The notes under the pieces are model-generated. The model saw nothing but the letters and a program-made list of their open reading frames with translations, had not been told where the DNA came from and did not search any database. A stretch of DNA of 22,792 nt from a virus, in the IMG/VR virus record IMGVR_UViG_3300033143_004906; one strand, given 5' to 3'. A program made the translations under genes and the position numbers. Position 1 is the stretch's first letter; every line of letters begins with the position of its first letter. Positions 1 through 21,382 of the stretch are shown here, piece after piece.

Positions 1-3000
1 TGTTCCAGAACTTCCACTACTACCACTAGACCCAGATGTTCCAGAACTTCCACTTGTACCTGAACTTCCACTCGTTCCACTTGACCCTGATGATCCAGAG
101 GTACCAGAACTTCCGCTTGAACCAGAAGACCCAGAACTTCCAGATGTTCCTGAACTTCCACTTGATCCAGATGTTCCACTTGTACCTGAACTCCCAGATG
201 TTCCACTAGACCCGCTTGAACCAGAACTACCACTACTTCCAGATGAACCACTTGTGCCACTGCTTCCACTACTTCCTGATGATCCAGATGAACCTGAACT
301 TCCAGATGAACCACTTGTCCCACTACTTCCAGATGATCCTTCTTGTACTATTATATTCCAATAATTTTCCCATAAAGTTCCAACACCAGGTTCATAATCA
401 TCCACCGCTGAATTATGATCTTGAATACATACATAACTATTTCCATTATGGTACACTACATCATTTATATAATAATTACTAGTTGAATCCCAATTTCCAA
501 TCCAGTTTATGGATGTTCCGCTTGATCCTGACGTACCTGATGATCCGCTTGTCCCTGAACTTCCAGATGATCCACTTGTCCCTGAACTTCCGGATGATCC
601 ACTTGTCCCTGAACTTCCGGATGATCCACTACTACCTGATGTACCTGAACTTCCACTTGTACCGGAACTTCCACTTGTACCGGAACTTCCACTACTTCCA
701 GATGAACCAGATGATCCACTACTACCTGACGTACCTGAACTTCCGCTACTACCTGACGTACCTGAACTTCCTGATGATCCACTACTACCTGACGTACCAG
801 AACTTCCACTACTTCCTGATGATCCACTACTACCTGACGTACCAGAACTTCCACTTGTACCAGAACTTCCACTTGTTCCACTAGAACCAGATGATCCACT
901 ACTACCTGAAGTACCGGATGATCCACTACTACCAGATGAACCACTTGAACCTGATGACCCACTTGTCCCACTACTTCCACTTGAACCAGATGTTCCACTT
1001 GAACCAGATGAACCACTTGAACCAGATGACCCACTAGACCCGGATGAACCACTAGACCCTGAAGAACCACTACTTCCGGCTTCGGTCACTATATCCCAAT
1101 ATATTTCCCAATTAGTACCTATCCCTGGTTCGGTATCATCTGGAGCAGAGTTATGATCTTGAGTGCATGTGTAACTATTTCCAGTATGATAAACTACATC
1201 ATTTATATAATAATTACTAGTTGAATCCCAATTTCCTACCCAATTAATAGAGGTTCCTGAACTTCCACTTGTTCCTGATGATCCTGATGTTCCTGAACTT
1301 CCACTACTTCCTGAAGTACCTGAACTTCCGCTTGTCCCGCTACTACCTGATGATCCAGATGAACCAGAACTTCCAGAAGATCCACTTGTTCCACTACTTC
1401 CAGATGATCCTGACGATCCTGATGATCCACTACTTCCGGAACTTCCGCTACTACCGGAACTACCACTTGTCCCGCTACTACCGGATGATCCACTAGAGCC
1501 TGATGAACCGGAACTTCCACTAGATCCTGATGAACCGGATGTTCCACTACTTCCACTACTTCCAGAACTACCACTAGACCCGGATGTTCCACTAGAACCA
1601 GATGTTCCACTAGACCCAGATGTTCCACTAGAACCGGATGTCCCACTAGACCCTGAACTTCCAGATGTTCCTGAACTTCCACTAGAACCAGAAGATCCAC
1701 TAGACCCAGATGTTCCACTAGACCCTGAACTTCCAGATGTTCCTGACGATCCACTACTTCCACTAGACCCGGATGATCCACTACTTCCTGAACTTCCTGA
1801 ACTTCCACTACTTCCAGATGTTCCGCTACTACCCGAACTTCCAGATGTTCCACTACTACCCGAACTTCCAGATGATCCACTTGATCCTGATGTTCCAGCA
1901 GGACCGGGAGCTCCTGATAGAGCAACATCCCAATCATTATATGTTCCTGTCCCAGTAATTGTTACAATATCTACAGATATTTCTCCAGTTACTGTATTAT
2001 ATAATGTAATTTCTCCTTCCATTTTATTATCATTATCATATGCAATAATAACAGTTTGTCCAATTGAATATGATAGATCTGGAGCTACATCAAATGTTTT
2101 TAATTCAATTGCTATATTCATACTAGTCGTAGAATCTGTAGCGTATAAATCTCCATCAAGTCCTGAAGTACCACTTGATCCTGAAGTACCATCTATACCT
2201 GAAGTACCACTTGACCCTGATGTTCCACTACTTCCTGATGTTCCACTAGATCCGGAAGATCCACTAGATCCAGAACTACCACTTGTTCCACTACTACCAC
2301 TTGTTCCGCTAGACCCGGAGGATCCTGATGTCCCCGAACTTCCACTTGTTCCACTACTTCCAGATGAACCGGATGTTCCTGAACTTCCACTTGTTCCAGA
2401 TGAACCGGATGTTCCTGAACTTCCACTTGATCCAGATGTACCTGAACTTCCACTTGATCCAGATGTACCAGAACTTCCACTTGTTCCAGATGAACCGGAT
2501 GTTCCGGAACTTCCACTTGATCCAGATGTTCCACTAGAACCTGATGTCCCCGAACTTCCACTTGTTCCACTACTTCCAGATGATCCACTTGTTCCACTAC
2601 TTCCACTAGACCCGCTTGATCCAGATGTTCCTGAACTTCCACTTGTTCCAGATGAACCAGAACTTCCAGATATTCCTGATGAACCGCTTGTACCAGATAT
2701 TCCTGAACTACCTGAACTACCTGATATTCCACTACTTCCACTTGTACCAGAAGTTCCTGATGATCCTGATGATCCAGACGAACCTGAAGAACCTTTTTTA
2801 ACGACAATATCCCAATAAATTTCCCAATTAGGGCCTATTCCTGGTTCTCTATCATCAGGGGCAGAATTATGATCTTGTACAGATATATAACTCTCACCAT
2901 TATGATAAACAACATTGCCAATAACATAATCACTAGTTGAATCCCAGTGTCCAACCCAAAAAAATGAAGATCCACTTGATCCTGAAGTTCCTGAACTGCC

Positions 3001-3234
3001 TGATGATCCAGAACTTCCTGATGTTCCTGAAGTACCGGATGAACCAGGAATACCGACTCCATCTAATTGTGATTTTGTGGCTAAATGATAGGATTCAACT
3101 GCATCAATACCACGAACGGGGGTTGTGAAACGGGGATCTGTGCCATCGTAATATAACTCGGATTCTTGATTATCACCGAGTTTGAGTTTTTGACTTTCAT
3201 ATAACTCAAAATTTTTATTTACGATTCTTGGCAT
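1..3234 (-). CDS. Giant collagen-like (G-X-Y)n tail-fibre or surface protein, X/Y mostly Ser/Thr, with three CBM5/12-type carbohydrate-binding modules. The C-terminal end lies beyond the window start.
   Basis: I translated the minus strand myself. ATG at 3234-3232 is preceded by AAGGA and an in-frame TAA 12 nt upstream. The N-terminus reads MPRIVNKNFELYESQKLKLGDNQESELYYDGTDPRFTTPVRGIDAVESYHLATKSQLDGVGIPGSSGTSGTSGSSG... The frame was checked at six separate points (3234, ~2950, ~2170, ~1896, ~1266, ~528 and positions 1-42) and it is one continuous frame with Gly at every third residue. The other two minus-strand frames contain stops, and the track's VQVE-type ORFs are those frames. Confidence 0.75.
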   Translation of the reverse strand, partial: MPRIVNKNFELYESQKLKLGDNQESELYYDGTDPRFTTPVRGIDAVESYHLATKSQLDGVGIPGSSGTSGTSGSSGSSGSSGTSGSSGSSFFWVGHWDSTSDYVIGNVVYHNGESYISVQDHNSAPDDREPGIGPNWEIYWDIVVKKGSSGSSGSSGSSGTSGTSGSSGISGSSGSSGISGTSGSSGISGSSGSSGTSGSSGTSGSSGSSGSSGTSGSSGSSGTSGSSGTSGSSGTSGSSGSSGTSGSSGTSGSSGTSGSSGSSGTSGSSGSSGTSGSSGTSGSSGTSGSSGSSGTSGSSGTSGSSGSSGTSGSSGTSGSSGSSGSSGSSGTSGSSGTSGSSGTSGIDGTSGSSGTSGLDGDLYATDSTTSMNIAIELKTFDVAPDLSYSIGQTVIIAYDNDNKMEGEITLYNTVTGEISVDIVTITGTGTYNDWDVALSGAPGPAGTSGSSGSSGSSGSSGTSGSSGSSGTSGSSGSSGSSGSSGSSGSSGSSGSSGTSGSSGSSGTSGSSGSSGSSGSSGTSGSSGSSGTSGSSGTSGSSGTSGSSGTSGSSGSSGSSGSSGTSGSSGSSGSSGSSGSSGSSGSSGTSGSSGSSGSSGSSGSSGSSGSSGSSGTSGSSGSSGSSGSSGSSGTSGSSGTSGSSGSSGTSGSSGTSGSSGTSINWVGNWDSTSNYYINDVVYHTGNSYTCTQDHNSAPDDTEPGIGTNWEIYWDIVTEAGSSGSSGSSGSSGSSGSSGSSGSSGSSGTSGSSGSSGTSGSSGSSGSSGSSGSSGTSGSSGSSGSSGTSGSSGTSGSSGTSGSSGSSGSSGSSGTSGSSGSSGSSGTSGSSGSSGTSGSSGSSGSSGSSGSSGTSGSSGTSGSSGTSGSSGSSGSSGTSGSSGSSGTSGSSGSSGTSGSSGTSGSSGTSINWIGNWDSTSNYYINDVVYHNGNSYVCIQDHNSAVDDYEPGVGTLWENYWNIIVQEGSSGSSGTSGSSGSSGSSGSSGSSGSSGTSGSSGSSGSSGSSGSSGTSGSSGTSGTSGSSGSSGTSGSSGSSGSSGSSGTSGSSGSSGTSGSSGTSGSSGTSGSSGSSGSSGT
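346..510 (-). repeat. CBM5/12-like module copy 3 (INWIGNWDSTSNYYINDVVYHNGNSYVCIQDHNSAVDDYEPGVGTLWENYWNII)
   Basis: Same motif as copies 1 and 2. Confidence 0.6.
1088..1248 (-). repeat. CBM5/12-like module copy 2 (INWVGNWDSTSNYYINDVVYHTGNSYTCTQDHNSAPDDTEPGIGTNWEIYWDIV)
   Basis: Same motif as copy 1, with about 80% identity by eye. Confidence 0.6.
2801..2965 (-). repeat. CBM5/12-like module copy 1 inside the giant ORF (FFWVGHWDSTSDYVIGNVVYHNGESYISVQDHNSAPDDREPGIGPNWEIYWDIV)
   Basis: Pattern W-x3-T/S-x-Y-x2-G-x-V-x-Y-x-G-x2-Y-x-C/S-x-Q-x-H-x-S-x5-EP-G-x5-W matches chitin-binding domain type 3 (CBM5/12). Three paralogous copies are present. Confidence 0.6.
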
Positions 3235-3266
3235 AGAATTATTTTATATCCTTGTGGGGTTGGTCT

Positions 3267-3275
3267 ATTATACCA
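3267..3275 (-). promoter_or_regulatory. Candidate extended -10 (TGgTATAAT on minus strand), about 33 nt upstream of the giant ORF start
   Basis: Plus-strand attatacca is TGGTATAAT on the minus strand. No convincing -35 was found. Confidence 0.25.
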
Positions 3276-3300
3276 AAACACTTAACTACCTTCCTTTAGT

Positions 3301-3912
3301 TTATCCGGTCACTGATATTAATAATTCAACTGTGTTATCTGGCATCCATACTTGAATTTCTGTATTATCTATATGTTTAACATCTAATGGAGATACTTTT
3401 TCTAAACTAGAAGCATCAACACAATATACAGTACAGTTGTTATTCATAATACTTGTACTAATATCAATAGAATAATATACATCATTCCCGGATACAAGCC
3501 ACTCACCTGATGTTATTGTAGTTCTTAAAATTTTAGATGCACCGGTATAATCTTCAACTTGATTTGTATACGTTTCTCTATAATATGCAGTAGTTACTCT
3601 AAATCTAATCAAATCATTTTCAGCAATAACAGTTGTATTGAATCTTATTTCTGTTGACCCTGTTTCGGAATAATCACCTTGTAAAAATTCTCCTACATAT
3701 GCATTGGCTCTTTTTAATACTCCATTAACATATACTTCCAACTCATTAGTTCCTACAGCAAAAATAAATCCTGTATTCACATATCTATTTGTTGCTTGGA
3801 GAGCAGTTATTTTTATCAATGTATCTCTAAGAACACCACTTGGTCTTATATAATCCGCCCCGGTTGCAACTTTTCTATAAATATTATCATTTACTCTTTG
3901 CACTTTACCCAT
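3301..3912 (-). CDS. Hypothetical structural protein (203 aa) between the fibre-like genes
   Basis: Complete ORF on the same strand as the structural module. No recognisable motif. Confidence 0.7.
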   Translation of the reverse strand: MGKVQRVNDNIYRKVATGADYIRPSGVLRDTLIKITALQATNRYVNTGFIFAVGTNELEVYVNGVLKRANAYVGEFLQGDYSETGSTEIRFNTTVIAENDLIRFRVTTAYYRETYTNQVEDYTGASKILRTTITSGEWLVSGNDVYYSIDISTSIMNNNCTVYCVDASSLEKVSPLDVKHIDNTEIQVWMPDNTVELLISVTG

Positions 3913-3940
3913 TATATCTATCTCCTTACATTAAAGGAAT

Positions 3941-6430
3941 TTATATTTCATGCCACATTCCAGTAGTTGGTGAATAAAGAAATGTTTTTGCTACTCCAGC
4001 AATTCCTATATAATCTTCTTGACTATTTAGTCTTATATTATTATTATGTTGAATAGTTGTTGTATAGTTTGATCCGTCAAAAATTATATGGATTTTTGTA
4101 ACATTGGTTGTATCAATATCAAAATTAGTTATTGTAATTGCTGAAGTAGAATCATTTGTTAACCAAATGTCTGCTGTATTAACATCTGGTGTATCATCAC
4201 CTTCCACAAATCTTGCTTCTAATAAATCTACAGCAGTTTCTAAAGCACTAACATCATTTGCCAAATTGCTTATATCAGTTTGATTATTACTTATATTAGT
4301 TTGGTTAGTACCTATATCAACTTGATTATCATAAATATCGCCTTTAACTTCATAAACATCTGATATTAAAATAGTAACTGTACTATCAAGATCTGCAATA
4401 TTAGTTTGATTTTGAGCAGCAACTGAATCAATACTTGATACAGAAATTTCTAATGCTGCAACATCAACTTGAAGTGAATCTACTGCTGTACTATCCGCTA
4501 AAAATAACCCACTTAAGTCATATAATTGATTATCTAATATTACTATAGCTTCAGTTATATTAGTTATTGAAGCAGTCGAATCCATATAATAAGAGGCTGA
4601 AAAATCTGGGTATTCGTCAGTATCTCCAGTACTTCCTACAAATGTTTGTAAATTATCTTTACTTGTTTCCATTGGAGTTACTAAATTTGAACCTCCATCA
4701 TTATCTATAGATGGGGTTGTATAAAAATCTGAATATAATGTTTGTATATTATATTCATTATACGGAACTGTTTCTGTCAAATTTTCATCTTTATCATATA
4801 TAATTCCATAACTAGTAATTGTATCTGTTCCTGAAAAATCACATCTAACTCTTAAATCAAATCCTTCTCTTAATATTTTTGAACCATTAATTGTAGCAGT
4901 TTCACCACTACTAGCTCCTGTAATTGTTTCTGATCCTGTAAAATCAGATGGAACTGGACTCAAATAACTTAATAATAAATAAGTCGGATATTGAGATGCT
5001 ACAATTGCTGTTTTTCCAGACGATCCCCCTGTAATTAATTCTCCAGCTGTAAATACCCCACTTGCCCCAGTTATAGGAACTTTATGAGTTGAAAATGTAT
5101 GTACTTGATCTAAAGTAGTTTGTTCCCAACCATCAATTCCTCCATCATTTGTAACAAACCAATTTGTATTACTTCCTGTTGGTTCACAACTTACTTGACA
5201 TATAACAATACAAGACCCATCATATCCCGAATCTGTTAGATCACTACTATAAAATGAAGTACCAACAGTACCATCTATTTGATGATTTGCTATATTATGA
5301 ACTGCGGTAGTATTTGTTGCGTCTATATAATCAGCATTTATAAATGAATCTGCTGTCAATCTCTTACAAATTGAAACTCCCAATAAATCTTGATAAGTAT
5401 CATACTCATTAGAAAAAGTTTCTCCTGATTGAGTTGAACCAGGCATAAACCATATATCAATTGTTCCTGCTGTATCTCCATCTTCAAGACAGACACCTAC
5501 TCCTTGTGAATATGGAACTGGAATCAAATTAGTTACTGCACCGGCGGTTGTTTTAGATAAATATACTTTATCACCTGAAACAATTGTAATTCCAGATTCA
5601 ACTACCACATTATCAACTTTTCCATATAATCTAACTTTTCCACTTCCATCACTTCCATTCCCAACTTGTAATACAGCACAATCAGCAAATGTACTTTGAT
5701 CAGATGCTATAGCTGGTTGTGCAATACCACTTGTGTCAACATATGCTAGTTGTCCAGTTATACAAGCAGTTGTATCTATATTATCCCTAATGGAGTCAAA
5801 TCCTTCCCATCTATTTGTTAAACCAAAATACATTTCATCTTCATCACGAACGTATATTAATCTTGCTTCATCATTAGTTTGAATAAATGTTGGTAATGTA
5901 TCTTCAACACCACAAAATAATTTACTATATACTCTTTTATTGTCAGTCTGACCAGGATCATAATCATGTAGAGATTCAATTTCAAAAACAGAACCAGTAA
6001 AAATAACTTTGACTGCTTTTAAGAATAAATACCTCCCACCATACACATAGTTAGTAGATGTTTTAGATGGAGACATAATCTTGATTGAAGCTTGTGGAGC
6101 AGGTTTGGTCTTTTCATATTCATAATCTAAAAGAATATAATAATAACCTGCCTCGTTGAAAAAACTGGTAGGAGTATAATTATTAGAATCTTCAAAATTA
6201 ATTGAATGAGTTGATGTAAATTGAAGAAATACATCGTCTTTAAATACTTCACCAGAACCCATAGTTACAATCGTCAATGGAGATGTTGCATCTAATGCAA
6301 CATCACAGGCATGAGTTGAATGAAGGCAATCAACACCTCTAGAAATAATTCTAGTTAAACGATTCACAATATTACTATAGTATGATGAATATGGATCTAC
6401 GGTTCTTTGCTGTGTTGGGTATACACTCAT
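3941..6430 (-). CDS. Large tail-fibre or receptor-binding-like structural protein (829 aa)
   Basis: Long ORF with AAGGAG 8 nt upstream of the ATG. The C-terminal third has Asn/Thr/Ser-rich heptad-like repeats (NQTNIADLDSTVT, DNQVDIGTNQTNISNNQTDISNLANDVSALETAV) typical of fibre shafts. The product call is inference. Confidence 0.75.
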   Translation of the reverse strand: MSVYPTQQRTVDPYSSYYSNIVNRLTRIISRGVDCLHSTHACDVALDATSPLTIVTMGSGEVFKDDVFLQFTSTHSINFEDSNNYTPTSFFNEAGYYYILLDYEYEKTKPAPQASIKIMSPSKTSTNYVYGGRYLFLKAVKVIFTGSVFEIESLHDYDPGQTDNKRVYSKLFCGVEDTLPTFIQTNDEARLIYVRDEDEMYFGLTNRWEGFDSIRDNIDTTACITGQLAYVDTSGIAQPAIASDQSTFADCAVLQVGNGSDGSGKVRLYGKVDNVVVESGITIVSGDKVYLSKTTAGAVTNLIPVPYSQGVGVCLEDGDTAGTIDIWFMPGSTQSGETFSNEYDTYQDLLGVSICKRLTADSFINADYIDATNTTAVHNIANHQIDGTVGTSFYSSDLTDSGYDGSCIVICQVSCEPTGSNTNWFVTNDGGIDGWEQTTLDQVHTFSTHKVPITGASGVFTAGELITGGSSGKTAIVASQYPTYLLLSYLSPVPSDFTGSETITGASSGETATINGSKILREGFDLRVRCDFSGTDTITSYGIIYDKDENLTETVPYNEYNIQTLYSDFYTTPSIDNDGGSNLVTPMETSKDNLQTFVGSTGDTDEYPDFSASYYMDSTASITNITEAIVILDNQLYDLSGLFLADSTAVDSLQVDVAALEISVSSIDSVAAQNQTNIADLDSTVTILISDVYEVKGDIYDNQVDIGTNQTNISNNQTDISNLANDVSALETAVDLLEARFVEGDDTPDVNTADIWLTNDSTSAITITNFDIDTTNVTKIHIIFDGSNYTTTIQHNNNIRLNSQEDYIGIAGVAKTFLYSPTTGMWHEI

Positions 6431-6607
6431 TTAATTGATCTCCTTAGGATATTTTCTATAAAAAAAGATAGGTAATAAACCTACTATTAGTATTTAAATT
6501 TTGTTCTAATAGTTACCCATTATTAGTTACTCACATAGGAAATAATTTAGTTTAAAACTGAAGAACTATATATATTATTTATTGAGGAAGGAATTTTTGA
6601 GGTGACG

Positions 6608-6640
6608 AAAAAGAAGGGACGTTCACTTTGGAACGCCCCT
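6608..6640 (-). terminator. Rho-independent terminator after the MucR-like gene (minus-strand RNA: GGGGCGUUC-loop-GAACGUCCC then UUCUUUUU)
   Basis: 9-bp stem with one mismatch at 6616-6624 and 6631-6639. An A-tract at 6608-6615 on plus gives a U-tract on minus. Confidence 0.5.
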
Positions 6641-6718
6641 AGTATTTAAATCTGGTAACTGTGAAAATAATTGTTTATTAGTATTTTTTCATTTATTTGT
6701 TCTTAATAAAATAGAAGA

Positions 6719-7369
6719 TTAGTTTTTACCTTTAATAACCTCATCTATATCATTAGATGTTGGAGCCTTTCCTTTTACTATAAACACTCTCCACCCATCA
6801 TTTTTTAATGTTTCATTACGTCTTGCTTTTGGAAATACATCTGTATTATGCCAGAATACATCAGGAAATTCAATATCTACTTTCATTACAGGATCACAAA
6901 AATCTGTTATAGTTTCATATAACAAATGTTGTTCAATATTTAATTTTTGAATTAAATAATTTTCTTCTGTATGAGGAAAATAAGTTTGTAGATGTTCTAT
7001 AATTCTATCCCTTATTTTTCTTATTGGATTTCCTGGTTTATTTGTCGCTTCCTTTATTTCATTGGCATAGAATTCTTCAATTGAAGGTCCTTCATCTGTA
7101 AGTACTTCTTCTGGAAATGAAAGTTCCTCTGCTATAACAGGTTCTTTCGTTTCAGGTTCTTCCATTATTCCAGTCTTAGCGTATTTTTGTTTTATTTTAA
7201 AATTCTCAGAAACAAACGCAGCTGTAGGATATCTCATCCTATATTGTTTCATAGTTATTCCATGTGACTTTAAATGAGTCACTGAAACAACTTTATAAGA
7301 TTTTCCGCATATTTGACAAATAACTTTTCCATCTTCATCGTGTGTTGAATATTGTAGATCATCTCCCAT
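6719..7369 (-). CDS. Ros/MucR-type C2H2 zinc-finger protein with a possible degenerate Vsr/DUF559-like C-terminal domain
   Basis: N-terminus CQICGKSYKVVSVTHLKSH has C-x2-C-x9-H-x3-H spacing, as in Ros/MucR. C-terminus ...DIEFPD...ARRNETLKNDGWRVFIV resembles the D..R..L...GW.V.R tail of DUF559/Vsr-like endonuclease folds. AAGGAG lies 7 nt upstream of the ATG. Confidence 0.6.
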   Translation of the reverse strand: MGDDLQYSTHDEDGKVICQICGKSYKVVSVTHLKSHGITMKQYRMRYPTAAFVSENFKIKQKYAKTGIMEEPETKEPVIAEELSFPEEVLTDEGPSIEEFYANEIKEATNKPGNPIRKIRDRIIEHLQTYFPHTEENYLIQKLNIEQHLLYETITDFCDPVMKVDIEFPDVFWHNTDVFPKARRNETLKNDGWRVFIVKGKAPTSNDIDEVIKGKN

Positions 7370-7432
7370 ATTAATTCTCCTTATTCAATGTTCTCTTATA
7401 TTTATAATTTGTTCTAAGTTAGGAGGGATATT
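7370..7432. promoter_or_regulatory. Divergent promoter region (TATAAT at 7403-7408 for the plus-strand genes; TATAAA/TATAAG boxes on the minus strand for the zinc-finger gene)
   Basis: 63-bp AT-rich gap between divergently oriented genes, both with SD sites. Confidence 0.35.
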
Positions 7433-7819
7433 ATGACCACGCACCATTACATGTTTTCTTTAGCAACAATAGGAGGATTTGGCGAAAAGGCAGGACAATA
7501 TTATATAAAACATGGAATTGTTCATTGGACTAGTGAACTAAATGAAAAAATTGCTGAAGTAATATTTTTAAAAAATGATAAGTTATTTCCTAATGGCATT
7601 ACATACAAGGAAGCATGTGATATTGAAAATGTTACAGAAAAAGAAATGGAAATAATAAATAGTATAAATCCTTTATTTATGGCAGCAAAAGTTAATCTAT
7701 GTACAGTTCATAAATTTATGACTGAAGGAGAAACCCCAACCGATTGGTTTGAAATGATAGTTTCAAATGCACATAAAAGAGAAAGCTTTAAAAAATTACT
7801 AAAAGATTCAGAAATTTAA
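7433..7819 (+). CDS. Hypothetical protein (128 aa)
   Basis: ORF with AGGAGGG SD. No motif recognised. Confidence 0.7.
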   Translation: MTTHHYMFSLATIGGFGEKAGQYYIKHGIVHWTSELNEKIAEVIFLKNDKLFPNGITYKEACDIENVTEKEMEIINSINPLFMAAKVNLCTVHKFMTEGETPTDWFEMIVSNAHKRESFKKLLKDSEI

Positions 7820-7829
7820 AGGAGGTTGT

Positions 7830-8213
7830 ATGAGTAATGAGGATATCTTAAAAAACATTACCGATGATATGGCAATGAAGTGGGTAGAAATATGTGCCAA
7901 AGTTGAACCGGAACTATGGAATACAGATACCCCAATTTTACCTGTTAATTTAAATGTTCCTAGAAGAGTAGTAGGACTTTTAAAAGAAGAGTTTGCATCA
8001 GGTAAAAGTGAAATAAATAAATTTTTTAATAATATTTTACAACAGGCAAGTCCTGAACATATAAGTAATATGACAATTAATGAATTTACAACTTATATGT
8101 TCAATTTTGTTATGCTTGAAGGAATATCAAGTATAATAAACCGAAGAGAGGATATTGTAAATAATCATCTCAGAAACGCCGAAGAATTGGTGAGAATGAC
8201 AAAGGAGGAATAA
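7830..8213 (+). CDS. Hypothetical protein (127 aa)
   Basis: ORF with AAAGGAGG SD. Confidence 0.7.
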   Translation: MSNEDILKNITDDMAMKWVEICAKVEPELWNTDTPILPVNLNVPRRVVGLLKEEFASGKSEINKFFNNILQQASPEHISNMTINEFTTYMFNFVMLEGISSIINRREDIVNNHLRNAEELVRMTKEE

Positions 8214-8367
8214 TAAAAGCACAAGTAGAACAATTTGAAACATTTTACGTAGTTATGCCAGTAATACACCTGTCATATTTAATCCGAAAACCAAAAGGTT
8301 TGTTGATAGTGATGCGGAACAAGCGGTTCAACAGTTTACTATCGCTCCAGAAGGGTTTTATGTTGTA

Positions 8368-16145: not shown

Positions 16146-17821
16146 AATATTTAGTTAAAGGTCGAAAAGTTGACCTAAAGCAAAATGACTTTGTTGCTAA
16201 AGGAGGCGAAGGAAGTGTTTTTCGGCAAGGGGAAAAAACATTTAAAATTTATACCGAACCGAAGAAAATGATCCCTGTTGGAAAAATACAAGAACTGTCT
16301 AAATTAAAAAAAGGTAACATCATAAGACCTCAGGAAATTATCTTTTCTACTAAAAAGAAACCTGTAGGATTTACAATGAAATGGGTTAATGGAATTCCTA
16401 TATGTAAAATGTTCACAAATGATTTCAGAAATCGGCAAGGAATAACCGAAGATATGGTAATTGCCTTAGTCGAAGAAATGAAATTAACTATTGATTTTAT
16501 TCATAAACAGAAATGTTTAGTAGTAGATGGTAATGAATTGAATTATATGGTGAACCAGAAATTCACAATTCCATATTTCATTGATGTTGACAGTTACCAA
16601 ACTCCGTCTTTTAAGGCAACAGCAATAATGCCATCAATTCGAGATTATCAAGCGAAGATACTATCTCCTATCACTGATTGGTTTTCATTTGCAATCATAG
16701 CATGTCAACTTTTTATCGGAATTCATCCATTCAAAGGAAAACATCCAGATTATAAAAAGAAAGACATGACAAAAAGAATGATTGAAAATGTATCAATCTT
16801 CAATTCAAAGGTTCGAGTTCCTCCACCAACCAGAGATTTCAACTTAATTCCTATCCATTACAAAGAATGGTTCTATTCATTATTTGAAAAAGGAATAAGG
16901 ATGTTACCCCCTGATATGCCTGGTGATGTAATTTTCTCTCAAATTCAAACTATCATTATAAAAAGTACTGATAACTTTGAAATAAAAGAGTTAAGATCAT
17001 TCATTGGAGATATTTTATATTATTCAGTTAGATATGGAGTTCATATTACCAAAACAAAAGGGACTCTATATATCAATCATTTACAATATAAAATAAGTCC
17101 TGATGTTGAGGTTCTCTTAACAGAGTCGGAACATGTTTTAATCAAAATCGAAAATGAAAGACTTCAGGTTAAAAGTTATGCTAATAAAGATCTAGTGGTT
17201 CCTGATCTAGCATGTCAAGAATTTATGATTGTTGATAACTGTTTATATCTCAGAAATAAAGGTAGTTTCACTGAAATAAATGTACTTGAATTAAAAAATA
17301 AAATTATATTTAATACCAAAGAAACATGGAGTATAATGCCGAATTCAAGTCATATGTTTAGTGGAGTTATATATCAAGATGTTCTTGGTATACCCTTTAT
17401 ATGTATCCCTATTCCTGATCCTTCTGGAATGGGCTCATTTCATATATATAAGGTTCCCGAGATAGAAGGATATAAGGTTATTGATGGAAAATATAAATCC
17501 GGTATTTGCGTTCTGATTGGTTATAAGAAAGGTGAATACCATATGTTTATATTGAAATTCGGAACTAAAATGGGGTCCTATTCATGTAGAATAATAAATG
17601 ATATAAACAACCCTGTTATAAATTTTACGGTTCTTGATAATGGTCTCGTTGTTTTAATGAACGATGATACGCTTGAAATATTCTCATATGATCCTTCTAA
17701 AGGAGATGTTAAAACATTCAATGATCCAGATGTTAATTCAACAAACAAATTATTTAGTGAGGGAATGAGAGTGCTGTTTGCAAAGGGCGACAAACTCTGT
17801 TCTCTAAAAGTCAAAAAATAA
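16142..17821 (+). CDS. Eukaryotic-like Ser/Thr protein kinase with an unknown ~280-aa C-terminal domain
   Basis: Gly loop AKGGEGSVF, Lys in FKIY, catalytic loop LVVDGNELN (D-x4-N), DFG-like IDVDS and subdomain IX-like WFSFAIIACQLFIGIHPFKG. The start ATGA overlaps the PP2C stop. Confidence 0.8.
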   Translation: MKYLVKGRKVDLKQNDFVAKGGEGSVFRQGEKTFKIYTEPKKMIPVGKIQELSKLKKGNIIRPQEIIFSTKKKPVGFTMKWVNGIPICKMFTNDFRNRQGITEDMVIALVEEMKLTIDFIHKQKCLVVDGNELNYMVNQKFTIPYFIDVDSYQTPSFKATAIMPSIRDYQAKILSPITDWFSFAIIACQLFIGIHPFKGKHPDYKKKDMTKRMIENVSIFNSKVRVPPPTRDFNLIPIHYKEWFYSLFEKGIRMLPPDMPGDVIFSQIQTIIIKSTDNFEIKELRSFIGDILYYSVRYGVHITKTKGTLYINHLQYKISPDVEVLLTESEHVLIKIENERLQVKSYANKDLVVPDLACQEFMIVDNCLYLRNKGSFTEINVLELKNKIIFNTKETWSIMPNSSHMFSGVIYQDVLGIPFICIPIPDPSGMGSFHIYKVPEIEGYKVIDGKYKSGICVLIGYKKGEYHMFILKFGTKMGSYSCRIINDINNPVINFTVLDNGLVVLMNDDTLEIFSYDPSKGDVKTFNDPDVNSTNKLFSEGMRVLFAKGDKLCSLKVKK

Positions 17822-17832
17822 AGGAGCTTATC

Positions 17833-18951
17833 ATGACTGAAAAGAAACATGTTGCACAAACCCTTATGACCCTGCTTATTAATCCACTCGTTATGGATAT
17901 TCTCGACCGGAATATAAGTATGGAAGATATCATTCCTCAAGTTAAGGAATTTTGGGGATATGACCTTATGAGCAGAAAACCTGGACCTGCTTATGATGGA
18001 AATGGAATTTTTCAGGGAACCAATCTCGACCTGGCGTGTTTTCTATACAACCTCATTGAACGTAATACAGTTATCAACATTCCGACCTATGATTCTTTCA
18101 GTGCTCCAAGACTCAAGGAAGGACAGACAATACTGTCAAAAGATAATCGCAATGGAGAGTTATTGGCGGTTATTGGAAACAAGTCCAATTTCCGGTTTTC
18201 GGTTCGTATTATGGATATGAATATCGTCAGTGCTGATAAAGTCGGGGACTTCCGTACATTTACCTTAACCGATAATGATGGAACCTGGTATAAAGGGTGG
18301 AATGAAATTCAGTTTGTTCCGACCATCAATGAAAACAAATTCATAACCGAAAATCAATTATGGTCCGGAAACAGAATTATTTTCACCAATTTTGTTCATC
18401 CGAATCGCTGGACTTCTTTCTTCGGGCATCATTATGCCATTACCAAACTTCTGATAAAGAGATTGACAGACGAGCGATCGTATCTGAATGTGTTAAAGAA
18501 AGAAATGATTGCTGATGGTATTACCTATCCTTCGGGATGGGCAACTTCTCCACAATCATTTCCGTCAGGAGAAACAAAACGTCTCAAAGTCGATTCGTTT
18601 GAAGTTCAGATTGATGTTCCCAATAATGATTCAAAATTTCCCGAGTATGAAAAATCTCAGGAAAGTCTGGTGCATTTAAACAAGATGTGGAAAAATTACG
18701 GTTCCACTATCGAAAGTCTCCGGTTCATGACCAGAGTTACTGAACTCGCCCATTACAATAAACCCGACAGAATGCCCTCCTGGTTACAAAATGTCGAGTG
18801 GGAACATGGTTATAAGGTTCCCCCGCGAGGAAGAAGTGAATGGGATCGTCTCGTTCTATTTCAGCCAGGTGTAGGTGAAACCGGAGTTTCAATCCGAAAG
18901 AGAAGATTCGTAAAATCAGAAACTGTTTCGGCCAGATACGAACCAGCATAA
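17833..18951 (+). CDS. Hypothetical protein (372 aa), immediately downstream of the kinase
   Basis: AAGGAG SD 7 nt upstream. Moderately GC-richer than its neighbours. No motif recognised. Confidence 0.75.
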   Translation: MTEKKHVAQTLMTLLINPLVMDILDRNISMEDIIPQVKEFWGYDLMSRKPGPAYDGNGIFQGTNLDLACFLYNLIERNTVINIPTYDSFSAPRLKEGQTILSKDNRNGELLAVIGNKSNFRFSVRIMDMNIVSADKVGDFRTFTLTDNDGTWYKGWNEIQFVPTINENKFITENQLWSGNRIIFTNFVHPNRWTSFFGHHYAITKLLIKRLTDERSYLNVLKKEMIADGITYPSGWATSPQSFPSGETKRLKVDSFEVQIDVPNNDSKFPEYEKSQESLVHLNKMWKNYGSTIESLRFMTRVTELAHYNKPDRMPSWLQNVEWEHGYKVPPRGRSEWDRLVLFQPGVGETGVSIRKRRFVKSETVSARYEPA

Positions 18952-19884: not shown

Positions 19885-20282
19885 AAACTAAAATGGATTT
19901 TGTAACAAACTCAAGTTCAACTTCATTTGTAGCTTGGGGAATAAGTATGGAAAGGTCTGAATTATCTGAAAAGTACGGAGAAGCAATTTATAAATATCTA
20001 AAAACAAATGGAGATGATAGAATAAAAAAAGATCTAGAAACCATAAGTTTTGAAGAATTCTGTTATGATATTTACGAATATGTTTGGGACGGAATTGCAG
20101 GTCTAGATACTGCAGCCAGGTGGGAAGACGATATTATGATCGGAGGTTCACCAGATGATATGAAAAGTGATCAAACAAAGAACGAGTTCAAACAAGAAAT
20201 ATGTGAAAACTTTGCCAAAATTGGAATTGAAATGACTCCTGAAACTCTTGAATGGATTCAAGAAGGATGGATGGACGGATGA
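19881..20282 (+). CDS. Hypothetical acidic protein (133 aa)
   Basis: ATGA start/stop overlap with the previous gene. AAGGAG lies upstream. Confidence 0.7.
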   Translation: MKTKMDFVTNSSSTSFVAWGISMERSELSEKYGEAIYKYLKTNGDDRIKKDLETISFEEFCYDIYEYVWDGIAGLDTAARWEDDIMIGGSPDDMKSDQTKNEFKQEICENFAKIGIEMTPETLEWIQEGWMDG

Positions 20283-21382
20283 TAAAAGAATTTCCGACAT
20301 TATACGCTTTAGCGAAAACAAAGAAAATCAAACAGTGGACAACATGGGTTGAAGAACATGAAAATAATATAGCAACTATTCATGTCGAAGCTGGTTATAT
20401 AGATGGAAAAATTAATGATAAACCGAAGACAATTAAAAAAGGAAAAAATATAGGGAAGTCTAATGAAACGACTCCTTATACTCAAGCAATTTCTGATGCT
20501 CAATCAAAATGGAATAAAAAAAGAGATAAAAATTATGAGTTAGAAGTACCCGATCCTAAAAATTACGTTCCTAGAATTATGTTACCACAATTAGCAAAAG
20601 GACCAGGTAAAGGAAAAATTATATATTCTTGTTTCATACAACCTAAATTAAATGGTATTTGTAATTTAGCTGAATTACTTGCCAACTTAACTGTATTACA
20701 TCATTCAAGAGGCGGAAAATTATTTGAAACTATTGCACATTTAGATGAATGGGTTAGACGATGTAATCCTATTGCTCCATTACACGGAGAATTATATATG
20801 CATGGTGTTAGTTTACAAACAATAGGATCTTATACAAAAGAGTTAAAAGATGATTGTGAGAAACTCGAATTTTGGGTTTATGATATTGCTCATACAGAAT
20901 TACCTTTTGAACAGAGATTGAATTGGATGAGTGAAAATATAGCTACATTACCTCCAGAATGTCCTATTAAAATGACCCCTACATTCCTTGTAAATAATAA
21001 AGAAGAAACTAAACATTATCATGATAAATTTGTTTCTATGGGGTTTGAAGGAGGAATGTTAAAAAATAAAAATGGTATTTATATGTTCCAATATAATTCC
21101 GATGAGATTGAAAAAGTTAAATCATTTGAAGATAGTGAATTCGAAATTGTTGGTGGAAAACAAGGTGAAGGTCTTGATGAAGGTTGTGTTGTTTATAGAT
21201 GTAAAACTGAATCAGGTCTCGAGTTTGATGTTCGCCCGAGAGGAACTGTTGAGTTAAGACGTAAATGGTTTATAGAACTTGATCAAGTCATTGGAAAACC
21301 TTTAACCGTTAGATATCCTGAGCTTACTGATAGTGGAAAACCAAGTCAGGGAGTGGGTATCGCAATAAGAGATTATGAATAA
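20279..21382 (+). CDS. ATP-dependent nucleic-acid ligase-like nucleotidyltransferase (LigE or phage-type minimal ligase fold) with an atypical motif I
   Basis: Motif I PKLNGICNL...SRGGK (KxNGxC instead of KxDGxR, followed by the SRxG element), motif III LHGELYMHG, motif IV EGGMLKNKNGIY, and an OB-like tail (FEIVGGKQGEGLDEGCVVYRCKTESGLEFDVRPRG). The ATG at 20279 overlaps the TGA of the previous gene. Confidence 0.65.
   Translation: MIKEFPTLYALAKTKKIKQWTTWVEEHENNIATIHVEAGYIDGKINDKPKTIKKGKNIGKSNETTPYTQAISDAQSKWNKKRDKNYELEVPDPKNYVPRIMLPQLAKGPGKGKIIYSCFIQPKLNGICNLAELLANLTVLHHSRGGKLFETIAHLDEWVRRCNPIAPLHGELYMHGVSLQTIGSYTKELKDDCEKLEFWVYDIAHTELPFEQRLNWMSENIATLPPECPIKMTPTFLVNNKEETKHYHDKFVSMGFEGGMLKNKNGIYMFQYNSDEIEKVKSFEDSEFEIVGGKQGEGLDEGCVVYRCKTESGLEFDVRPRGTVELRRKWFIELDQVIGKPLTVRYPELTDSGKPSQGVGIAIRDYE

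Follow-up and report, generated by a model that had tools for sequence, protein, structure and literature searches.

A collagen-like gene with Gly-Ser/Thr-Ser blocks and CBM5/12-type modules, predicted to encode a long fibre of an uncultured jumbo-type tailed phage

Introduction

Proteins in which collagen segments are separated by small globular domains have been described from prophages. The side tail fibre proteins of the EPclB type, from an enterohaemorrhagic Escherichia coli (EHEC) prophage, carry a small globular phage-fibre repeat between two collagen segments (Col-Pf2-Col), and rotary shadowing of EPclB shows globules joined by stalks (PMC3368898, Ghosh et al. 2012). The collagen length of EPcl proteins differs in multiples of three residues (PMC3368898). 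Here, we describe a collagen-like gene that occupies positions 1-3234, on the minus strand, of the IMG/VR virus record IMGVR_UViG_3300033143_004906. This record, referred to below as the window, is a complete JGI contig of 22,792 bp (P0155). The encoded protein shares with EPclB the alternation of collagen segments and small modules. However, the collagen of EPcl is Pro-rich, has about 22% charged residues and is flanked by PfN, PCoil, and PfC domains, while in the protein described here the X and Y positions of the Gly-X-Y triplets are almost only Ser or Thr, the nodes between the blocks number at least 5 and score as CBM_5_12, and no PfN was found. Phage_fiber_2 gave no match to the fibre protein at E values up to 1.

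Hydroxy-amino-acid-rich Gly-X-Y sequence is also found in BclA of the Bacillus exosporium, which is built from GPT-type triplets, and in Thr-rich bacterial collagens. BclA is a glycosylated spore-surface protein with a C-terminal trimer knob (glycosylation: PMC11923368; PMC8968730), whereas the gene described here stands in a phage context and encodes Ser at Y, Ser or Thr at X, and hardly any Pro. Across bacterial collagens, X is most often Pro, and Thr predominates at Y (PMC8968730). The stabilisers of the triple helix reported in the literature are proline or hydroxyproline (Pro/Hyp), KGE/KGD clamps, and Thr in Y (PMC11923368; PMC8968730). Glycosylated Thr stabilises the triple helix (PMC11923368), and (Gly-Pro-Thr)10 folds only if galactosylated (PMC11923368; PMC8968730).

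From its sequence and comparative context, we consider the gene product to be, with reasonable probability, a homotrimeric fibre of great length that belongs to an uncultured jumbo-type tailed phage, most likely a tail fibre encoded in a variable receptor-binding cluster. A preliminary description of the window had already proposed a giant collagen-like fibre protein with Ser or Thr at X and Y, and this proposal was borne out by Pfam, by sequence matches in the PDB, and by the comparative context.

Results and discussion

A single open frame runs through the repeat

In frame 0 of the minus strand, the sequence from an ATG at 3234 down to position 1 comprises 1078 codons without a single stop, while each of the remaining five frames contains 23-142 stops across the same region. 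The preliminary description had pointed out that the gene was invisible in the track of open reading frames (ORFs), which proved correct: as the gene extends past the edge of the window, it was not entered in the ORF list. As the window is the whole contig, the gene has been cut at position 1 by the assembly, inside the repeat. The minus-strand ORFs that are listed in this region (507-1070, 1236-1937, and 2193-2807) lie in a frame with 23 stops and are by-products of the repeat; an origin of the repeats in such alternative-frame ORFs was rejected.

Between the window and L001, a near-identical contig of 4610 bp that stems from a different sample, the 4143 common bases show 8 substitutions and no indels. 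With the 467 bp that L001 adds, the ORF reaches at least 1233 codons and is still open. L001 thereby supplies part of the remaining ORF that the preliminary description had wished to obtain, although the 3' end was not reached. Neither a frameshift nor a stop, which had been named as an observation that would refute the proposal, is found in the repeat in either assembly. A third assembly (L003, JGI 3300033154) carries a 176-nt out-of-frame deletion at its positions 482-492, corresponding to approximately 2710-2885 of the window. The deletion joins the middle of the first carbohydrate-binding module (CBM) to the 18th triplet of the second Gly-X-Y block, so that half a module and 17 triplets are lost and a stop follows; the variant may be a defective one, or the assembly may have been mis-joined here. 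L003 and the window terminate at the identical base within the repeat.

These breaks raise the question of whether the long frame is an artefact, either of a mis-assembled low-complexity repeat or of a decaying pseudogene. The shared breakpoint of the window and L003, the deletion in L003, and the alternative-frame ORFs of the gene caller would all suit such an explanation. On the other hand, the window and L001 are independent and agree over their common bases as described, the frame stays open for 1233 codons, the substitutions between them keep every Gly, the domain modules are intact and score above the Pfam thresholds, and a separate metagenomic locus (L093, see below) shares the architecture. 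We therefore regard an artefact as very improbable.

The JGI gene caller broke the gene into several false alternative-frame ORFs in both L001 and L003. As a result, the real protein is missing from protein collections, which accounts for the empty homologue searches; more generally, because gene callers split them in this manner, such fibres are under-represented in protein databases. At the DNA level, an exact search of IMG/VR with the gene start and an exact search of metagenome contigs with the end of L001 gave no match, and a word-index homologue search with the fourth CBM and the start of the C-terminal domain returned nothing.

Gly-X-Y blocks of almost only glycine, serine, and threonine

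All features of the fibre gene lie on the minus strand. The protein starts with a non-repeat domain of 60 residues (aa 1-60, positions 3055-3234), for which no match was found in Pfam or PHROG and no relatives among metagenome contigs. A word-index search of 5.8 billion proteins with this N-terminus and with the domain in the middle of the protein retrieved a fragment of the protein itself only. From its position, the domain is presumed to be the end that attaches to the virion. It is followed by block 1 of the Gly-X-Y sequence, which has 10 triplets (aa 61-90, 2965-3054), and, past the first CBM, by block 2 with 72 triplets of the GSS/GTS/GIS type (aa 148-363, 2146-2793). Blocks 3 (74 triplets, aa 441-662, 1249-1914) and 4 (63 triplets, aa 720-908, 511-1077) follow, and block 5 starts at aa 966 (1-339), with 38 triplets in the window and 58 in L001. 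Beyond the window, L001 adds a fourth CBM, block 6 with six more triplets, and the first 19 residues of a C-terminal domain, which starts at aa 1215. Pfam Collagen (PF01391) matches the protein with an E value of 2.4e-104 in 11 stretches, including blocks 2, 3, and 4.

In total, 283 triplets are known (10, 72, 74, 63, 58, and 6), and the register is unbroken within each block. The X position is occupied by Ser in 192 triplets and by Thr in 80, with Ile in seven and Pro in one, while Y is Ser in 275 triplets, with two Pro and two Asp. Overall, the blocks contain three prolines, three aspartates, and neither Lys nor Glu. The stabilisers considered (Pro/Hyp, KGE/KGD salt bridges, and Thr in Y) are absent from the 283 triplets or differ there. 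The likeness to GxT-type bacterial collagens that had been suggested in the preliminary description was not retained, as the pattern is G-[ST]-S, with Thr at X rather than Y.

The preliminary description had also considered the 9-nt DNA repeats an obvious target for length variation by slippage. The 256 triplets of the window are, however, written with 67 distinct 9-mers; tandem-repeat identities are mostly 62-80% across periods, and the longest exact direct repeat measures 45 nt. All 283 Gly are retained, encoded by GGA (166), GGT (82), GGG (31), and GGC (4). Serine is drawn from both of its unconnected codon families, with AGY and TCN in a ratio of 92:100 at X and 110:165 at Y. Where the window and L001 differ, the change is synonymous or swaps Ser, Thr, or Ile at X, and Gly is untouched. 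This indicates that purifying selection acts on the peptide, namely on Gly at every third position and on Ser, and not on the DNA repeat. As the peptide is conserved while the codons are scrambled, simple slippage is less likely. Length variation driven by slippage was rejected in addition by the comparison of copy number between assemblies, since the three independent assemblies show no in-register length change.

The composition also bears on whether these blocks form a triple helix at all. Alternatively, they might be extended, mucin-like spacers, heavily O-glycosylated or disordered, that do no more than keep binding modules apart in a monomeric or loosely trimeric protein. Such spacers would suit 283 triplets that are almost free of Pro and charge, as the literature ties stability to those features or to glycosylated Thr, and the glycosyltransferases (GTs) that adjoin relatives of the gene would suit a mucin-like brush. 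Yet a spacer has no need of Gly at every third position, and the register is unbroken here and over 960 triplets in a metagenomic relative (L030), despite heavy synonymous divergence. Moreover, the same modules are embedded in Pro-rich collagen, with a continuum of compositions, and the triplets run straight into and out of the modules. We consider spacers of this kind rather unlikely.

A further possibility is that the Gly-rich repeats form polyglycine-II or polyproline II (PPII) helix bundles instead of a three-chain collagen helix. Bundles of this kind are known from the snow-flea antifreeze protein and from the glycine-rich motifs of T4-type gp38 adhesins, and a tripeptide periodicity of Gly with small residues is in principle compatible with them. 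Those folds, however, are composed of short antiparallel segments and turns, while 58-74 triplets run uninterrupted here without turn motifs. The match to Pfam Collagen is very strong, and homologous modules occur within ordinary collagen sequence. This arrangement seems highly unlikely to us, and a collagen-type helix is the preferred reading of the blocks.

Four CBM5/12-type modules

The blocks are punctuated by four modules of 57 aa each, of which three lie in the window and the fourth in L001. Module 1 comprises aa 91-147 (2794-2964), module 2 aa 663-719 (1078-1248), module 3 aa 909-965 (340-510), and module 4 aa 1140-1196. Thus, the three modules that were counted originally are indeed present in the window, but the protein has at least four. 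Their assignment to CBM family 5/12 held up in a profile search, in which modules 1, 2, and 3 scored 27.6, 31.4, and 34.7 bits, each above the curated (gathering) cutoff of 26.2 bits of Pfam CBM_5_12 (PF02839), with 68.1 bits in total. Sequence matches in the PDB (phmmer) for module 3 were 6z41 (E 7e-4) and 1ed7, the chitin-binding domain (ChBD) of ChiA1 (E 3e-3).

In an alignment of the four modules with four other phage modules and the ChiA1 ChBD (alignment A1), residues W7, Y13, and W51 are invariant. The positions of the Trp, Tyr, and Trp residues and a C-x-Q-x-H-[TN]-S core align with those of CBM family 5/12 domains such as the Bacillus circulans ChiA1 ChBD (PDB 1ED7). Unlike those domains, the modules have no attached enzyme here and sit in a fibre that we propose to be trimeric. 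The retained aromatic residues suggest that the modules would provide multivalent, low-affinity binding of host-surface polysaccharide; the preliminary description had regarded GlcNAc polymers as plausible ligands. A search of IMG/VR with the alignment of the CBM modules returned just three distant loci, among them L093.

A beta-barrel module embedded in the collagen

Between blocks 2 and 3 lies a domain of 77 residues (aa 364-440, 1915-2145). The preliminary description had placed an unrelated beta-rich domain of about 80 aa at 1925-2165; the domain itself was found nearly at this position, but rather than being unrelated it belongs to a widespread module of collagen-like fibres. No match was found in the copy of Pfam that was searched, and a profile search of PDB sequences gave nothing significant. 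With an alignment of relatives (A3), AlphaFold2 predicted its structure with a pLDDT of 85.6, whereas the prediction without the alignment (40.7) was discarded.

An exhaustive HMMER search of 1.84 billion representatives returned 70,220 matches. Among the best 149 of these, 33 have 1-10 copies of the domain inside Gly-X-Y sequence, 54 have CBM-type modules, and eight have both. As the fold is a common small barrel, these matches are supportive rather than diagnostic. Judged by its relatives, the mid domain is a member of a widespread beta-barrel module that recurs within collagen-like phage fibres. Gly-X-Y triplets abut the modules directly on both sides. Across viral contigs, the share of Ser and Thr in the X and Y positions around the mid domain varies continuously from 0.02 to 0.91, and because the composition forms a continuum around this domain, blocks rich in Ser and Thr and ordinary collagen blocks appear structurally interchangeable. 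Relatives of the mid domain have Peptidase_S74 chaperone ends and occur in neighbourhoods with sheath, T4 baseplate, or crAss markers. One relative (P0003) bears the label PF26696 'PTL_trimer', which perhaps denotes the mid domain; no paper mentions the label.

Relatives in cultured and uncultured phages

Collagen blocks punctuated by small modules are already recognisable in sequenced phages. The closest phage match to module 3 is found in a collagen-like protein of Dhakavirus (54% identity, E 9e-13). In Dhakavirus dhaeg (QHR70625.1; L004 3314-4819, MN850609.1), Gly-X-Y sequence is likewise punctuated by a W-G-W...Y...C-Q-D...W module. The Dhakavirus protein has 501 aa, is annotated as hypothetical, and carries two CBM5/12-type modules between Pro-rich collagen blocks; its gene lies between rnlB and hoc. 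Dhakavirus comprises cultured T4-like coliphages, in which a relative of the module would be tractable. Roseobacter phage CRP-125 encodes two 'collagen-like proteins' with the module (gp39 and gp40), which adjoin a tail fibre assembly gene, and in Pelagibacter phage Mosig, tandem modules stand at the start of a tail fibre of 1245 aa. The Dhakavirus and CRP-125 proteins show the same order as seen here: N-terminal domain, collagen, module, collagen, module, collagen, and C-terminal domain. They differ in having only 429-501 aa and canonical triplets rich in Pro, Gln, and Lys, and are annotated as 'hypothetical' or 'collagen-like'. What stands out here is the near-pure Gly-Ser/Thr-Ser region, its length, and its combination with four CBM5/12-type modules.

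Fibres rich in Ser and Thr were also found in metagenomes (L030; P0006/P0152, P0072/P0151, P0036, and P0106; L093). They consist of GSS, GTS, and GST triplets with almost no Pro and carry the mid domain in register, as in the window. Unlike the window protein, most have no CBM modules, and several have Peptidase_S74 ends and TibC-type GT cassettes. We found no description of such fibres with an embedded barrel in the literature searched. The fibre in L030 (positions 1-18298, IMGVR_UViG_3300008259_000066; also present in L029) is N-terminally truncated, has at least 3883 aa and 960 triplets with six beta-barrel modules, and terminates in a Peptidase_S74-like end. The sole relative with all three elements, namely GSS/GTS collagen, a CBM5/12 module, and the mid domain, is L093.

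The fibre gene follows two genes on the same strand

The fibre gene is the third of three genes on the minus strand. Directly upstream, separated by a gap of 66 nt, is a gene for a protein of 203 aa (3301-3912), which has no match in Pfam, PHROG, or a tblastn search of GenBank phages. The cluster is headed by a gene for a fibre-like protein of 829 aa (3941-6430), for which Pfam, PHROGs, and tblastn of GenBank phages likewise gave nothing. A coiled-coil segment of the 829-aa protein resembles UspA1, P22 gp26, and reovirus sigma-1, with weak E values. In the family of this protein, the N-terminal part is conserved and the C-termini are variable, among them Phage tail Collar and Kelch domains. 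Two homologues, P0160 (in L094) and P0189 (in L095), are encoded on contigs of 265-269 kb, where they are followed by varying genes for beta-helix, Laminin_G_3, Collar, and Caudo_TAP proteins. Such changing gene sets are the hallmark of a variable cluster for receptor binding in a jumbo phage.

This bears on the part of the virion to which the fibre would belong. It could instead be a decoration of the head (capsid) that serves not for host recognition but to attach the virion to surfaces rich in polysaccharide, for example particles, mucus, or biofilm. The best match to a module (54%) stems from the Dhakavirus gene between rnlB and hoc, and the N-terminal anchor is unclassified, both of which would be compatible with a head fibre. 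The family of the 829-aa neighbour, however, includes Collar domains, and P0160 and P0189 precede the beta-helix, Laminin_G_3, Collar, and Caudo_TAP genes named above; in addition, relatives of the mid domain with Peptidase_S74 ends lie beside sheath and baseplate genes. A head fibre therefore appears unlikely to us, and a tail fibre remains the preferred assignment.

A gene for a ROS/MucR-type zinc-finger protein (6719-7369, minus strand) lies directly upstream of the fibre cluster, and a ROS/MucR gene is also found two genes upstream in the 269-kb contig L094 (7611-8315). The encoded protein may regulate the late fibre genes. Between this gene and the cluster, a consensus scan, the only method applied here, detected a terminator-like hairpin on the minus strand (6615-6640), a possible upstream boundary of the transcription unit.

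Glycosyltransferase cassettes beside Ser/Thr-rich fibres

The preliminary description had considered the fibre possibly glycosylated. Relatives of the fibre that are rich in Ser and Thr do adjoin GTs, including enzymes of the TibC/Aah type, but the window itself has none. In L007 (14866-19251), two GTs stand straight after the fibre gene, and in L011 (11856-17664), an orthologous GT pair is located 2.3 kb downstream; L009 (14093-17113) encodes a fused GT and methyltransferase of 1006 aa. In L030, a cassette starts 3 nt past the fibre stop with a GT1/methyltransferase gene, followed by a GT1-TibC-like gene, and L038 and L042 have the same cassette. The second GT of the cassette scores 254-297 bits against NCBIfam TIGR04414 (Aah/TibC autotransporter O-heptosyltransferase), with a cutoff of 200. 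Members of the Aah/TibC family glycosylate serines of repeat proteins.

A GT cassette was found at 5 of the 13 loci with a Ser/Thr share of at least 0.65 and at none of the 33 loci below it (duplicates removed; one-sided Fisher p 9e-4), in a sample whose lineages are not independent, in which 3 of the 5 positives came via another search route, and in which many loci are truncated. We found no paper that links TibC-type enzymes to phage collagen-like fibres or that describes the GT cassette. The gene neighbourhoods of the relatives thus support the view that the fibre may be O-glycosylated at Ser and Thr, and from this comparative context we regard the occurrence of Ser/Thr-only collagen fibres beside putative protein O-glycosyltransferase cassettes as the most interesting lead. 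Through it, glycosylation of phage virions could be tested beyond the mycobacteriophages.

More tentatively, these fibres could form an undescribed 'glyco-collagen' class of tail fibres, with helices of (Gly-Ser/Thr-Ser/Thr)n of up to about 1000 triplets, free of proline and charge, that would owe their folding and stability to dense O-glycosylation of Ser and Thr by phage-encoded enzymes, including TibC/Aah-type protein O-heptosyltransferases fused to GT1 domains. We consider this possible but doubtful. If such a class exists, sugars would replace hydroxyproline and salt bridges, and the coat might shield the fibre or act as a ligand.

At L093, the fibre gene is directly preceded by genes for a triple-GT2/methyltransferase protein of 1030 aa and a GT9-like ORF. 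Upstream of these GT genes (2337-5237), the locus also encodes a fusion of a RimK-type ATP-grasp enzyme with a Zn-protease, and a B12-binding radical SAM enzyme; both may also act in protein modification.

A model of the fibre

Taken as the tail fibre that we favour, the protein would be assembled from three chains that zip the (Gly-Ser/Thr-Ser)n blocks into collagen-type triple helices, giving rigid to semiflexible rods. At the rise of a collagen helix, about 0.286 nm for each residue, the four long blocks would measure about 50-63 nm each, and the 283 triplets about 240 nm in total if triple-helical. At each interruption, three modules would be joined, producing four CBM5/12-type nodes, with 12 such modules in a fibre, together with a single beta-barrel node. 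The CBM5/12 nodes would offer many weak glycan sites for a reversible, multivalent capture of host-surface polysaccharide. The C-terminal domain, of which only the start is known, would be the specific tip or a folding nucleus, with a role in trimer nucleation and perhaps recognition. The helices are probably stabilised by a network of Ser/Thr hydroxyls and hydration, with the globular nodes as clamps, and perhaps also by O-glycosylation of Ser and Thr by phage-encoded GTs. The trimer, the triple helix, the tail location, the glycan binding, and the glycosylation are all predictions that we infer from sequence and gene context.

In contigs of 265-269 kb, a variable tail-fibre cluster is headed by homologues of the 829-aa neighbour, and the locus is therefore best read as encoding a beaded, trimeric tail fibre that belongs to a jumbo phage. 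Several observations weigh against it. The helix stabilisers known from the literature (Pro/Hyp, KGE/KGD, and Thr in Y) are absent from (G-S/T-S)n or differ there, and the 3' end of the gene, with any trimerisation or chaperone domain and the downstream genes, lies beyond the contig ends. No relatives were recognised for the N-terminal domain or for the 203-aa neighbour, so that it is only from the context of the cluster that we place the fibre on the tail and not on the head, and the closest CBM-type module is encoded by a Dhakavirus gene that adjoins hoc, a gene for head decoration. Modules that resemble CBM5/12 need not bind a glycan; as nodes, they could have a purely structural role. With regard to glycosylation, the association with GTs comes from few, partly related lineages (2 of 10 versus 0 of 33 in the IMG/VR sample alone), and no GT was detected in the 22.8-kb contig with Pfam and with hidden Markov models built from the relatives' GTs, a search that covers the 19.5 kb upstream of the fibre gene, while the relatives L007, L011, and L030 keep their GTs downstream.

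The protein dispenses with these stabilisers over at least 283 triplets, while the Gly register and the identity of Ser are kept under clear purifying selection; among the relatives, up to 960 triplets occur. If the blocks are triple-helical, they would widen the natural sequence space of collagen and provide a minimal, hydroxyl-only scaffold for biophysics and biomaterials. With about 12 CBM5/12-type modules in each trimer, spread over some 240 nm of fibre, the design suggests that a jumbo phage could use it to capture glycans multivalently and at long range.

Other genes of the window

The rest of the window, with a vault homologue, RtcB, an RNase H-like protein, PP2C, a kinase, and a DNA ligase, fits a large phage. 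No tRNAs were found in the window, and promoter-like sites are not enriched. Positions 8368-10683 (plus strand) encode a homologue of the major vault protein of 771 aa (Pfam MVP_shoulder, E 3e-22, and Vault_3), which shows 42% identity to unannotated ORFs in the uncultured phage records LR756500, LR756501, and LR756503 (462-735 kb). An origin from a eukaryotic giant virus was considered and rejected, as the vault-like gene matches these phage records and the fibre cluster is syntenic with the 265-269 kb phage contigs, which bear tail genes.

Further along the plus strand (11079-14471) follow, in a row, genes for an RNase H-like/RVT_3 protein, an RtcB RNA ligase (E 5e-114), and an isochorismatase/nicotinamidase-like protein. 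An ATP-dependent DNA ligase is encoded at 20252-21382. Between these, at 14497-17821 (plus strand), are genes for a protein of 251 aa that appears vWA-like by eye (no Pfam match), a PP2C phosphatase (PF13672), and a protein of 559 aa with a weak match to protein kinases, which together may form a phage-encoded Ser/Thr signalling trio.

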